Position numbers and translations under genes: made by a program
DNA from: Acidobacteriota bacterium
GTDB taxonomy: Bacteria > Acidobacteriota > UBA890 > WLXD01
Assembly: GCA_965205505.1 (NCBI GenBank)
Contig: CBDBHB010000009.1
Location: 448,001 to 512,000 of the forward strand
Length of the DNA stretch: 64,000 nucleotides
Direction: 5' to 3'
The notes under the pieces: generated by a model
What the model was told of the DNA's origin: nothing
What the model saw: only the letters and a program-made list of their open reading frames with translations
Database searches by the model: none
Part shown: positions 48,052 through 52,760 of the stretch, in pieces
How the letters are laid out: every line of letters starts with the position of its first letter
Numbering within the stretch: position 1 is the stretch's first letter

Positions 48052-49262
48052 ACTAGCCTGGCCAGAACGCCTAGCAGCCTCGCCACGTCGGCCCGATTGT
48101 TGAACAGCGCCACCGCTGCGCGTAGTAGCCGGCCGTCTTCCTGGAACGTGACCGGGACGTGGTCCGCCCTGAGTGCTTTGAGCAATTTCTCAGGATCCAG
48201 CCCGTGGTAGAAGCTGACGATCGGCGAGGTATTGTCCGGCGGCGTAAATAGATCGAGGCCGAGCTCGGCGACTCCCGCGCGCAGCTCGCCAGCTAGCGCA
48301 ACGGTGTGTCGTTCGATGCGATCGAGCCCCACGTCCTCGAGCACGGTCAGCGCTGCGTCCATGGCGGCCATGGCGCCATACGACACGTTGGCGTATTCGA
48401 ACTTCTCGGCTGTCGTCTTGAGAAGAAAGTGATGATCCAGAAGGTTCTCGGCGACCTGACCGTGGCCGTAGCGGTCGGGTGTCATCCATTCGAGATGCTC
48501 CCGGCGAACGTACAGGGGCGCACAGCCGAAATCGGCGAACAGCCACTTGTAACCGTTGCCACAGGCGAAATCGGCGCCCTCGTCATGGAGATTGGTCGTG
48601 AAGGTACCGAAGGCGTGAATCGCGTCGGCGTAGAGGTAGGCGCCATTGGCGTGGGCAAGCTCACCGAGCGACGGCAGGTGGTGGCGAAATCCGTTGCGGT
48701 TCGAGACCCAGGCGACGCTGATCAATCGCGTGCGGCCGTCGACACGGGCCTCGAAGTCCTCGATGCGCGCCCGTCCGCCATGCGAAGGCACGATGCGCAA
48801 CTCGACTCCGGAGCGCTTCTGGAGCTCGCGATAGAGGACGAAGCTGGTGGTGAAATGAAGCTCATCGAGCACGACGTTGTCGCCCGCTTTCCAGTCAATG
48901 GCGCCGACCACGATGTTTTCGCCGTCGCTAGTGGCGTAGAGAAACGCGATCTCGTCCTCGTCGGCGCCGAAGAGCGCGGCGAACTTGGCACGGGCGCGCT
49001 CTTTTGCCGCGCGGCGGCTCGCCGGGTTCCGGTAGAGCATCTTCTCGTCCGCGTATGCCACCAGCGTGTTGCGAACGGTTCGCGACAGCGGGCCGAGCGA
49101 CGCGGTATTGAGATAGGCCAGCTCGTCGGTGACCGGGAACTCGGAACGCACCCCGAGCGGATCGTCCTCGGACGGCGACGCGAGCCCGCGTGTCGTCGGC
49201 AGCGCCGCGAGCCCGGTGATCGCGGTCGTTCTCAGGAAGTTGCGACGGCTCAGAGCATTCAC
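48048..49262 (-). CDS. Class V PLP-dependent aminotransferase/desulfurase-like, Tat signal
   Basis: SRRNFL, YLNTAS, DAIH and GYKWL motifs. Confidence 0.85.
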   Translation of the reverse strand: MNALSRRNFLRTTAITGLAALPTTRGLASPSEDDPLGVRSEFPVTDELAYLNTASLGPLSRTVRNTLVAYADEKMLYRNPASRRAAKERARAKFAALFGADEDEIAFLYATSDGENIVVGAIDWKAGDNVVLDELHFTTSFVLYRELQKRSGVELRIVPSHGGRARIEDFEARVDGRTRLISVAWVSNRNGFRHHLPSLGELAHANGAYLYADAIHAFGTFTTNLHDEGADFACGNGYKWLFADFGCAPLYVRREHLEWMTPDRYGHGQVAENLLDHHFLLKTTAEKFEYANVSYGAMAAMDAALTVLEDVGLDRIERHTVALAGELRAGVAELGLDLFTPPDNTSPIVSFYHGLDPEKLLKALRADHVPVTFQEDGRLLRAAVALFNNRADVARLLGVLARLV

Positions 49263-49406
49263 GAGGATCTCTCCCGACTGGGTACCTGGCTCGAGTTTCT
49301 ATCTACTAGATGAGATGAGAAGGCCAACCTCCTGAACGCAGTAGCCTGACGGCTCTGCAAACGTTTCTTCAAACGTAACGGGCTCGAAGCCCAAGGAGGT
49401 TGGCCG

Positions 49407-50449
49407 ATGAGGAGTGTAACGATTGGACTGGACGTAAGCGACCGGTACAGCCGTATGTGCGTGCTCGACAGTAAGGGCAGGGTGATGGAGGAAGGGCGGG
49501 TGAGGACGAGCCCGGAGGGGCTGGCGAGGCGGTTCGGGTGCGAGGAGCCCGCTCGAGTAGTGCTGGAGGTTGGAACGCACTCGCCGTGGATGAGTGAGCA
49601 GTTGAAGCAACTGGGTCATGAGGTGCTGGTGGCTAACCCGAGGCGGCTGAAGCTGATCTATGGCGAGCACGGACCGACCGGTTGGATGCCGAGCACCTGG
49701 CACGAGTGGGCAGAATGGACCCAAAGCTGCTTAAGACGGTGCAGCATCGAGGCAGACAAGCGCGAGCGGATCTAGCCGTGATTCGGAGCCGAGATGCTCT
49801 GGTAAAGAGCCGCACGCAGTTGGTGAGCCATGTGCGTGGTGCGGTCAAGTCGGCCGGTTGTCGTATTCCCAGGTGCTCGACGCCGGCGTTCGCGCGCACC
49901 GCGCCAGAGCACATACCGGAGCGGCTCAAGGGAGCGCTCGAGCCGGTGCTTGAAACGATCGCCATGCTGACGGGCAACATCCAGCAATACGAGCGTCAGA
50001 TCGTGCAGCTGTGCCAGGGGCGATACCCGGAGACACAGCAGCTCCAGCAAGTGGCCGGGGTCGGAGCTCTGACCGCACTGGCGTATGTGCTGACGCTCGA
50101 GGAGCCGGAACGGTTCAATACCTCCAGAGCCGTGGGCCCGTACCTGGGACTGAGACCGAAGAAACGGCAGTCGGGGGACAAGGACCCTGCGCTACGAATA
50201 ACCAAGGCGGGCGACAAAATGCTCCGACGCCTGTTGGTGGGCTCGGCGCATTACATCCTGGGCCCCTTCGGGCCCGATACTGAGCTCAGACGCTGGGGGC
50301 TCAAGCTGGCCGGACGCGGTGGTCCTCATGGCAACAAAAAGGCAGCAGTTGCTGTCGCCCGTAAGCTCGCCGTTGTGCTGCACCGACTGTGGCTGAGTGG
50401 AGACGAGTACGAACCGTTGCGCGCACCTGTAGAGGTTTCAGCAGCATGA
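49407..50449 (+). CDS. IS110 DEDD recombinase (frameshift near 49670)
   Basis: IGLDVS, VLEVG, (K)TDRLDA, GVG, YLGL.P..RQSG and VAVARKL motifs. Confidence 0.9.
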
Positions 50450-50695
50450 ACTAACCCGCAACCAGGAGGTCGGTAGGGCGACGCGACCCAACGGTTATCG
50501 ATCTGACCGCCCGGTCCGGGCGACTGCGAAGGTCACTACGAGCTTCGAGCTCGGCAGCTAGATTGCAGCGCCTCGAATCGGGACGGACCCCAGAATGCAC
50601 CGGACGACCTGAATCCTCGTCCACCAGAGTGCGAATAGGAGCATGGCGTGCAGATCGATTCTTCGCTGGGCACCACATTGCCCTTGACCGAACTA
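50450..50695 (+). ncRNA. Putative bridge/seekRNA of the IS1111-type element
   Basis: Stem-flanked internal loops carrying segments that match the insertion target and the circle junction. Boundaries approximate. Confidence 0.7.
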
Positions 50696-50709
50696 GGCCT
50701 TCTCATAGA

Positions 50710-50986
50710 AGTGGCCTGTAACAGAGGTTCGTTGCATATTGCTGGGACGAGATGGGGGCAAGCTCAAGGCGCGATGAGGATGGCGATGCGGTGCCCATCG
50801 TCGACGAATCGCAACGCTGAGATTGCCCCCATCTCGTCCCAGCCCTCCGGGTGGCCGCGGGACTGGCCACCTCCGGCGTCGGCTCTCCTCTGCGATACGC
50901 TCAGCATCGCCGTCGTCGGGCCTCCTTGGATTCGACTCAGTCGCGCGCGCCACAATATGCAACGAACCTCTGTTACAGGACACTAG
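50710..50986. mobile_element. MITE with about 32-bp TIRs, CTAG-bounded; left tip interrupted by the IS1111
   Basis: agtggcctgtaacagaggttcgttgcatattg (50710-50741) versus caatatgcaacgaacctctgttacaggacact (50953-50984), one mismatch; no transposase. Confidence 0.85.
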
Positions 50987-51020
50987 CGGCCGAGTCGATC
51001 AGGGGTAACGGTCGCGCGCT

Positions 51021-52760
51021 CTAACGAGCCGGCTGCTGTTTGATGATCCACTCGACCAGTTTCGCCACGGCCTTCGAAGTTGCGGCGTCCAGAGCATCGA
51101 GGTCGTTCATGTCGTCGACACGGATGCGCTCGTCCGTGTCGGCGTCGCGCTGCGTGCTCCGTACCCTGAGGCGGAGATCCATTTCTCGGCGGGGCTCGTC
51201 CGCGAGCTCACGCAGCTCGATCCAGGCGGTGAAGTCGACCAAGGCCGGGTACCGCGCCAGCGCGATCGTGGGTTGTCGCTCCAGGTGGCGCGCTATGCGA
51301 CGGTGCACACTTCGCAGCGCCAGCTGCGCCGCGAGGTCGGGGACCATCGGCTTGAGAAACTCGATCACCGGCCCCTCATTCAGGGTAACGAGTCCCGCGG
51401 GTGGGTCCGACACGCGGCGTAGCCGGTCGATGATCTCCTCGGCGGGCACCCCTGCGCGCCGCGCCCGGATGGCGTGATTCTAGGCGGCCGGGTAGTCCAA
51501 CAGCCGGTACGCGACTTGGGCGATGCGCGCGTGCAGCTCACCGGAGCCTGGGGTCAGATCAAGCGCCTGCTCGTAGGCCTGGCGGGCCCCTGGCCACACG
51601 CCGGCGTCCTCGAGCACCCGGCCGCGACCCAGGTGCGCGGAGCTCAGCTGCGGATCGATGGCGGCGGCCGCCCGGAACATCGACAGGGCGGCCGTGGGGT
51701 CATCCGCGAGCAGGCGCGACGCCTGCCGTAACGCAGACCGCGCGCCAGCATAATCCACCGAGGTGCGGAAGACGCCAGGCTGCACCAACGGATCGGCATC
51801 GGCAACCTTGACCACTACGCTATGCCCACCTTGCTGTACCGGCGTGGGACCGCGGTAGGCGAGCACGTAGTAGCCGCGCACCAGCGCCAGCACTTTGTCG
51901 TAGCCGTCGCGTATGTCACGTTGCATGATCAACTGCCCGCCGGAGACGCGCGCCAGCTCTCCGAGCTGTTGCTGTAGCTGCTCGATGTAGGAGCGCTCAC
52001 GCTGGTAGCTGGCGAAATCCCATGAAAAGCTGGGCGCCAAGCGGCGGCCGGCCGCCAAGCCGACGGCGACCGCGAAGATCGGTGTCTCGGCCTGATGTGT
52101 CGCCAGCAGAACGTCGGCGTATTGTGCGTTGCCGCCGGTGTCTTCGCCGTCGGAGAGCAGCACCATCGCGGCACGTCGGCCAAGGGCCTCGGTCGCCGAC
52201 AGGGGCTCGGTGCAGCTGGCGTGGCCGGCGGCCCCATCGAGGCGCTCTTCATCTTCGGGCCGCCGCCTCCGCAGACCGCGGTAGGCGGCCTGAATGGCAT
52301 CGTAGAGGCGTGTCTCCGAGCCGTAGGGAATGGCGTCGACGATACGTCTCAGCAATGCATCCCGAGGCGATCCCCATCGGCCGGGCCCTACCGCCGAATG
52401 GAACGGCATGAGCAGGACACAGTCGTCGGGCGCCAGCGCGTCGAGAAGCGAGTGAATCGCCTCACGAGGTCTCGGGTCCGGCCACTCCTGTTCGATGCTC
52501 GCGCTGAAGTCCAGTACCAGCGCCAGGTCCAAGGGTGCGTTACTGGGTGCGAGCACCAACTGAATTTCCTGTTCGATCCCTTCTTCGAAAAGCCTGAAGT
52601 CGTCGACCCCGAGACCAGTGACGGGCTCGCCGTCGTCATCGAGTACTGCCACCTTGATGCGCGTCAGGTAGACAGCGGTGCGGTAGCTGTGCTGGTCCTG
52701 CGCGTCGAGCCGACCGCAGACCATCGCCACCAATGCCAGCAGGGCGAGCGTACGAACCAT
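51021..52760 (-). pseudogene. VWA-domain (VWFA-related Acidobacterial type) + TPR protein with an in-frame TAG at 51480-51482
   Basis: VLDDDGEPVTGL...F.LFEEG, LDFSAS, T.LYDAI and LSDGED motifs. The downstream ORF is in the same frame. Confidence 0.75.

Follow-up and report, generated by a model that had tools for sequence, protein, structure and literature searches.

Here we describe an insertion sequence (IS) of the IS1111 type, 1,400 bp long, on the plus strand (49310..50709) of a 64,000-nucleotide (nt) stretch of an Acidobacteriota genome (contig CBDBHB010000009.1); the whole stretch is called the window below. With a probability of roughly 0.85, we read this element as an IS1111-group copy carrying a guide RNA of ~140 nt (a seekRNA or bridge RNA) that directs insertion at the ends of a repeat element. 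The anatomy of the element, the conserved structure of its noncoding region, the covariation of its guides with flanks and element ends, and the usage of genomic sites were all observed here. A first-pass annotation of the same DNA had proposed an RNA-guided IS110-family recombinase with a guide RNA in the 3' noncoding region, an assignment supported by the matches of the transposase to NF033542 and Pfam, and had called for covariance modeling across homologs and a check of guide-target covariation.

Two short segments of the plus strand, both downstream of the transposase gene, read the target. The top-strand (right-target) guide, AGGTCACTA at 50530..50538, pairs with T(49307)-AG-TGGCCT(50712-17) through eight Watson-Crick pairs and one G:U pair. 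Most of it, ggtcacta (50531-38), had already been read as a target guide with one G:U pair; together with A50530 it pairs with TAGTGGCCT, an equally good match arose in only 32 of 5,000 mononucleotide shuffles of the noncoding region, and the segment sits where relatives carry the guide for their own right flank, so that shuffle test, homologous position, and the flank covariation given below all agree with the earlier reading. The bottom-strand (left-target) guide, GCAGCTAG at 50554..50561, repeats the left target side. It had been described as gcagctag, matching the other side of the target only at ctag where the site is used, and it lies at the homologous left-guide position. The two guides overlap at TAG of the target with the top-strand match 5', and the same order is found in relatives. 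Siddiquee et al. (2024, PMC11187229) report this arrangement for IS1111-type seekRNAs, with overlapping target matches of which the top-strand one comes first.

To examine covariation, we used an alignment of 30 relatives to fetch 80 public-genome loci at 49-60% identity, out of at least 550 family matches. The 43 of these 80 relatives with the exact subterminal repeat (see below) entered the guide test; of 44 elements, 4 without anchors and 4 with short flanks were dropped, and the remaining 36 comprised 32 distinct elements, whose guide windows were compared with their own and with others' flanks. The longest exact run between the top-strand guide and the right flank averaged 7.1 for an element's own flank versus 3.4 for others', with runs of at least 7 in 20 of 32 own pairs versus 11 of 992 cross pairs. 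For the bottom-strand guide and the left flank, the corresponding means were 5.9 and 3.3. For either target guide, the observed sum was reached by 0 of 10,000 permutations, a test that ignores shared ancestry.

The target itself is defined by the copies of the element in the window's own genome. A search of that genome gave 33 matches, including 28 full-length copies with identities of 98.6-100%, and the element ends were placed where the flanks of these copies diverge; the same layout is found in 43 relatives. On the left, the target half is CTAG (49306..49309, plus strand), with the core AG at 49308-09: among distinct left flanks, 27 of 28 end in CTAG and 28 of 28 in TAG, and nothing is conserved further left. 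On the right (50710..50718, plus strand), the core AG is followed by TGGCCTG, and the sequence after the right ends is AGTGGCCT in 27 of the 28 copies and AGTGACCT in 1, with 20 distinct right flanks. A shared AG core (49308-09 and 50710-11) is consistent with all 28 copies. Among the 40 relatives with both flanks, AG stands on both sides in 31 when fixed extensions of 5 and 3 nt are assumed, and in another 5 the left AG is displaced outward by one base. The core and the element ends that the first-pass annotation gave agree with the 28 copies and these 31 relatives. One relative, L111, has AA on both sides and AA also in its guides; three others (L064, L073, and L090) have unequal junction dinucleotides, and their top- and bottom-strand guides imply different dinucleotides for the two sides.

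The sequence that receives the element is a small nonautonomous repeat resembling a miniature inverted-repeat transposable element (MITE). This MITE-like element spans ~280 bp (50710..50987, no strand assigned), has ends TGGCCTGTAACAG... and ...CTGTTACAGGACA, each flanked by CTAG, and matches 84 places in the genome. It is palindromic, and several of its subfamilies share an end (GTAACAG, GAGTCAG). The IS thus inserts where the CTAG duplication meets the terminal repeat of this abundant small element.

The large number of such boundaries in one genome allows occupied and free sites to be compared. Occupied sites comprise 27 with TGGCCT and 1 with TGACCT, while the free sites comprise 109 CTAGTGGCCT (TGGCCT), 2 CTAGTGACCT (TGACCT), 87 CTAGTGTCCT (TGTCCT), and 6 CTAGTGCCCT (TGCCCT). 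Occupancy is therefore 28 of 139 for CTAGTG[G/A]CCT versus 0 of 87 for CTAGTGTCCT (Fisher p=4e-7). Opposite the variable target base lies guide U50533, which can pair with A or wobble with G but has no pairing with T, in agreement with the lack of any occupied TGTCCT site. The unused right end of the repeat (minus strand, 50983-91) reads ggccgctag and matches the left guide at 8 of 9 positions, yet it carries TGTCCT.

The left side appears far less demanding. Beyond CTAG, the match to the left guide was 1.88 of 5 positions at occupied sites versus 1.57 at free sites (p=0.35; 24 distinct occupied flanks, 109 free). Because occupied left flanks match the guide beyond CTAG no better than free ones do, the target requirement on the left seems short, and the short target requirement proposed earlier holds for this side, at CTAG only. 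With nothing but CTAG constant on the left, most of the specificity falls to the top-strand guide.

Both target guides lie within a conserved structure. The guide RNA core (50508..50648, plus strand) has six helices, derived comparatively, and the window scores 113.8 bits against a covariance model that was built from 36 distinct sequences in a plain MAFFT alignment. The closing helix P0 (50508-11 with 50645-48) is 84.7% paired in the 36 relatives, and all 4 of its pairs have changes on both sides; helix P2 (50514-17 with 50585-88) is 79.2% paired, and 3 of its 4 pairs have such changes. Within these, the target-binding arm (50518..50573) encloses both target guides together with hairpin H1 (50539-43 with 50549-53, 75% paired). 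The arm is closed by the 9-bp helix P1 (50518-22 and 50524-27 with 50565-68 and 50569-73, A50523 bulged), which is 97.8% paired, 4 of its 9 pairs being compensatory. A hairpin region (50596..50633) that contains ctcgtcc follows; it consists of P3 (50596-600 with 50629-33, 97.2% paired) and H3 (50602-07 with 50617-22). All six pairs of H3 are compensatory, but poor alignment of its arms makes it the weakest helix (52.9% paired in the plain alignment, 64.5% after fitting to the model).

Across the six helices, 82.4% of cells pair in the plain alignment versus 74.8% after shuffling, and both sides change in 22 of 33 pairs. These values were reached by 0 of 500 shuffles, and slid partners pair at 32-49%. 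Compensatory changes in all six helices favor a folded single strand. Of 87 homologous loci, 83 contain a match to the covariance model, among them 48 of the 52 that had no part in building it; the 4 without a match are L047, L081, L106 (cut by contig end), and L119 (27% protein identity). Together with the covariation of guides and flanks, this bears out both checks that had been called for.

The structure also allows the first stem of the earlier reading to be judged. Its letters are all where they had been placed (ctgcga at 50524-29, ttgcag at 50563-68, and the enclosed hairpin cgagc/gctcg at 50539-43/50549-53). Of this stem, CUGC (50524-27) with GCAG (50565-68) stands as part of the 9-bp helix P1, while the innermost pairs, 50528-29 with 50563-64, are paired in 50.7% of cells, as in shuffled alignments; the helix extends outward instead. 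A different outer stem, GAATCG (50574-79) with CGATTC (50655-60), was considered and dropped in favor of P0, which has compensatory support; both together would form a pseudoknot.

Three side observations concern this RNA. L063 (1234-2069) holds 2.9 tandem copies, 100% identical, of a 286-bp unit with the guide RNA and right end of a related element, and the covariance model matches three times and once partially; this could be either modular amplification or an assembly artifact. In L060, a second match to the model (418-574) lies ~900 nt upstream of the transposase gene, besides the expected downstream one, and may be the RNA of a neighboring copy or a solo RNA. Finally, one genomic copy with an intact frame (C9:685105) has G-to-C changes at the equivalents of 50638, in the left-donor guide described below, and of 50646, in the 3' strand of P0.

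Two further single-stranded segments of the RNA follow the ends of the element itself. The left-donor guide, ATAGGAG (50635..50641, plus strand), lies between P3 and P0 and repeats the right end and core, ATAGA+AG (50705-11), except that one G faces T. In almost all relatives this position reads ATGGAAG and the right end ATGGA, and the variants follow the end: ATAGAAG occurs with ATAGA (L104, L105) and ATGATAG with ATGAT (L073). Identity to an element's own right end is found in 178 of 180 cells versus 170.4 when permuted, a value reached in 2 of 20,000 permutations. Of the two guides that the first-pass annotation had placed in a second loop, ataggag therefore survives, as it occupies the homologous left-donor position and follows the right-end variants. 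The right-donor guide candidate, CCCAGAA (50589..50595, plus strand), is single stranded between P2 and P3 and was placed by homologous position. When its first four positions were set against each element's own left extension in the 36 relatives, 129 of 144 cells paired versus 112.9 when permuted (0 of 20,000), and its variants likewise follow the left end (CTCAAC with TTGAG, CCTAA with TTAGG). Donor-binding bases lie in a multi-loop in many IS1111 members (Durrant et al., PMC11208160), and the position of both putative donor guides here, in the joints of the junction, fits that layout.

A number of observations weigh against the reading of this region as a guide RNA that directs insertion. 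The minimum-energy fold of 50504-50653 (-59.4 kcal/mol) keeps P1, H1, P3, and H3 but not P0 or P2, and the comparative structure, at -39.6 kcal/mol or -45.0 kcal/mol when refined with the guides held open, is 14-20 kcal/mol less stable. The z-score of the entire noncoding region is only -1.99, and its single-sequence fold again lacks P0 and P2. No Rfam family was found on 50450-50709 at E values up to 10 in a scan of 49200-51100, where the only matches were microRNA-like chance matches at 50741-50843, on the long hairpin of the MITE-like repeat. The higher pairing of the model-fitted alignment (86.5%, 79 distinct rows) is biased towards structure by construction, and shared ancestry is ignored by the permutation tests. 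A fixed rule, with extensions of 5 nt on the left and 3 nt on the right, placed the ends of the relatives and fails for some of them. At the 28 used sites, the left-target guide matches over four bases only (CTAG), and the right-donor candidate of the window has 3 of its first 4 positions paired and none of the next 3. Lastly, two metatranscriptome runs of a single study yielded contigs that cover the element, 50504-50704 included, but DNA is possible in such libraries.

The alternative that survives best, though we consider it rather unlikely, is that the RNA only seeks the target, the transposase recognizing the ends through the subterminal repeats and the apparent donor guides being kept for structure or protein contact. 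The poor match of the right-donor candidate to its own left end (3 of 7 positions) in an element with 28 near-identical copies would fit this, as would the position opposite the first base of the left extension, which is unpaired in most relatives; a short seekRNA with the target matches was reported to suffice for movement of ISEc11 (Siddiquee et al., PMC11187229). However, both donor segments follow the variants of the ends, as described above.

Far less probable is that the conserved 3' region works at the DNA level, or as a transcript that regulates in cis, for example as a transposase-binding site, a terminator, or a translational control element, and that the matches to the flanks are by-products of insertion. 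The metatranscriptome contigs give no RNA ends, a promoter scan found no sigma-70-type promoter within the integrated element, and the left-guide match is four bases long here, all of which would be compatible with a cis-acting element. Against this stand the compensatory changes in six helices and the guide segments, which differ among relatives exactly as their flanks differ; in addition, for related IS1111-type elements, the RNA is reported to co-purify with the transposase, to be essential, and to be reprogrammable (PMC11187229).

Least credible of all is the earlier geometry of a second internal loop closed by tgcac (50596-600) and gtgca (50648-52), in which ctcgtcc (50616-22) and ataggag (50635-41) would read the circle junction: all of these letters are present where they had been placed, ctcgtcc makes 5 Watson-Crick pairs and 1 G:U pair of 7 with AGATGAG, and ataggag matches the right end and core, but the stem pairs at the shuffled level (44.4% versus 44.5%, reached by 287 of 500 shuffles) while TGCAC pairs with GTGCG (50629-33) at 97.2%, ctcgtcc forms the 3' arm of the fully compensatory hairpin H3 and its junction score (5.5 of 7) was reached in 2,314 of 5,000 shuffles, and G50648 is needed for P0.

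The classification of the element as IS1111 type rests on its ends, its noncoding regions, and its transposase. The left subterminal inverted repeat, ATGAGAAGGCC (49315..49325), is the reverse complement of the 11-bp right one, GGCCTTCTCAT (50696..50706), and outside these lie a 5-nt left extension, ATGAG (49310-14), and a 3-nt right extension, AGA (50707-09), all given on the plus strand. An exact inverted-repeat search found the repeat ATGAGAAGG in 43 of 80 homologous loci. Repeats of 11 bp with extensions of 5 and 3 nt fall within the description of the IS1111 group, which has subterminal inverted repeats of 7-17 bp and short terminal extensions (Durrant et al., PMC11208160). The noncoding region downstream of the transposase gene measures 260 nt (50450-50709) versus 97 nt upstream (49310-49406), again as described for the group, whose longer noncoding region lies downstream (PMC11187229).

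Several variants at these ends were seen among the genomic copies. In one copy (C9:2702236), an additional ATGAG unit separates CTAG from the point where the element usually starts, and in six copies the A equivalent to 50705, within the right subterminal repeat, is replaced by T. Two pairs of copies (C6:512421 with C6:423084, and C6:11743 with C6:189952) share an identical flank on one side only, which suggests rearrangement by recombination between copies of the element or of the repeat.

The transposase gene (49407..50449, plus strand) is broken in the window copy, where 4 bases missing after 49671 split it into open reading frames (ORFs) at 49407-49775 and 49682-50449. These 4 bases are present in 16 of the 28 genomic copies, and 10 of 28 have an uninterrupted frame of 348 amino acids from ATG. 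The frameshift repair that the first-pass annotation considered necessary is thus not needed, since intact copies exist in the genome. The intact protein of a genomic copy matches the NCBIfam model NF033542 ("IS110 family RNA-guided transposase") at 202.8 bits (cutoff, 140). With the two ORFs of the window, Pfam gives PF02371 at 63 bits and PF01548 at 26.6 bits on the truncated N-terminal ORF, below the gathering score of 29 bits; both domains are precomputed on protein P0001. Solved structures of the family are distant: the transposases of IS621 (PDB 8wt6; phmmer E=9.6e-8) and ISCro4 (E=7.6e-9) match over the C-terminal half only. In an alignment of 30 relatives, D9, E54, D92, and D95 do not vary, and S257 and G258 show a conservation of 90% or more; these columns are presumably the DEDD catalytic residues and the serine of the C-terminal SG. 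The intact protein carries GLRPKKRQSG, which fits, as does its length, the GL-P----S(t)G motif and the 330-350 amino acids given for IS1111 transposases (PMC11187229). Judged by sequence, this is an IS110-family RNA-guided transposase system of the IS1111 group, because subterminal repeat, long downstream noncoding region, and protein length all fit.

The presence of 28 full-length copies at 98.6-100% identity, 10 with an intact frame, argues that the element is active in this genome. The 10 intact copies could mobilize the window copy in trans, as its RNA and its ends are intact. Among 11 genomes of the family, a DNA search found the intact element in the window's own genome only. One congener genome holds three short fragments of the element, including a decayed piece of the RNA. 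A decayed fragment in a genome of the same genus (L121:1500-1625, minus strand) is 88% identical to window positions 50550-50673, from the left guide through the donor part, and no transposase gene adjoins it. Protein searches returned thousands of relatives, of which the best 120 have 59-100% identity, with relatives at 77-92% identity among them, and a single-protein metagenome scan gave 7 loci, the closest at 60% identity. The relatives come from Gemmatimonadota, Acidobacteriota, and Actinomycetota.

How the RNA might be expressed is suggested by the right end. A small hairpin, GGGCA-CCACAT-TGCCC (50668-83, recognized by eye), is followed by a -35-like TTGACC at 50684-89 (the two together at 50668..50689, plus strand). 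The hexamer stands 20 nt before the right end, and only joining of the ends would create a weak -10 (4 of 6) across the joint. TTGACA-like hexamers (5 or 6 of 6) stand at the -35 place in most of the 44 elements. These features might make up a junction promoter on the circle, which would resemble those described for the IS110 family. Several relatives have a hairpin in the same place, GGCCG-CCACGT-CGGCC, again by eye; among the genomic copies, position 50670 is G in 18 and C in 10, and C would break one pair of the hairpin. The metatranscriptome contigs carry the variant with the four bases of the transposase gene and hold no information on RNA ends or strand. No joint or circle junction appeared over 49250-50760 in contigs from four public runs, two of them RNA runs of a single study, which is not evidence of absence.

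Taken together, these data are consistent with the following sequence of events, in which the production of the RNA, its binding to the transposase, and its direction of recombination through a circle are assumed by analogy with the published mechanism of the family. The 3' noncoding region would be transcribed into a guide RNA of ~140 nt (50508-50648) with its junction closed by P0. In the P1 arm, the 5' guide AGGUCACUA would pair with the target top strand, T-AG-TGGCCU, and the 3' guide GCAGCUAG with the left side's bottom strand, ...CTAG. Their overlap would fall on the AG core, the likely site of strand exchange. Two single-stranded joints of the junction may hold the joined ends of the excised circle, with AUAGGAG (50635-41) repeating the right end and core and CCCAGAA (50589-95) predicted to pair with the core and left extension.

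This raises the question of how much guidance the element needs. One possibility, which we put forward tentatively and regard as doubtful on present data, is that it targets with essentially one guide (9 nt on the top strand, G:U tolerated, versus only CTAG on the bottom strand) and tolerates mismatched donor guides since the subterminal repeats carry end recognition in this clade, which would make the clade's junction-type RNA a naturally relaxed, half-guided bridge system. If so, its specificity rules would differ from those of IS621, and the 139 usable versus 87 unusable sites would amount to a built-in specificity experiment.

The kind of system found here is already known: it was described in 2024 (PMC11187229, PMC11208160) and is named in NCBI annotation models. 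Members of this clade may already be among the bridge RNAs predicted by Durrant et al. or the target logos of Siddiquee et al. RNA-guided IS110/IS1111 recombinases are under development as genome-writing tools, so that another member alone is unsurprising and its potential as a tool is generic to the family. What is added is a comparative RNA structure for a large clade of IS1111 elements from soil bacteria, with six helices, two target guides in a single arm, and two putative donor guides in the joints of a junction, and a natural specificity experiment within one genome, in which a guide U accepts G or A but not T. In addition, a four-base left match appears to be enough, and an evidently successful element has imperfect donor guides. 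The structure, the site usage, and this tolerance may bear on off-target rules for RNA-guided IS110/IS1111 systems.

The closest known systems are the IS1111-group elements with a seekRNA, ISEc11, ISKpn4, ISPa11, and ISPst6 (PMC11187229). They share with the present element a DEDD transposase of ~340 amino acids with the GL-P----SG motif, subterminal inverted repeats, a long downstream noncoding region, two short overlapping target matches with the top-strand match first, and natural retargeting among relatives. Compared by described features, the present element differs from them in its host lineages, in its target at the end of a small repeat, and in its unusually short left match of four bases. 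Another known IS1111-type element is alike in having a fixed position and orientation within the terminal repeat of another mobile element; here, the host is a nonautonomous repeat of ~280 bp, and insertion occurs exactly at the boundary between CTAG flank and terminal repeat. ISPpu9 and ISPpu10 of Pseudomonas putida (PMC12288879) are alike in their many insertions into a genomic repeat family and in an invariant AG at both ends, but they belong to the IS110 group, are described as having no subterminal repeats, and have the RNA upstream of the gene. Finally, IS621 (Durrant et al. 2024, PMC11208160; PDB 8wt6) is alike in its RNA-guided DEDD/serine recombinase and, by prediction for the present element, in a circular intermediate and in guides for either strand of both target and donor, placed about a 2-nt core. 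Its RNA lies 5' of the gene, with the guide order reversed and with two simple internal loops, whereas the present element has its putative donor guides in a multihelix junction, an AG core, and a transposase only distantly related to that of IS621.

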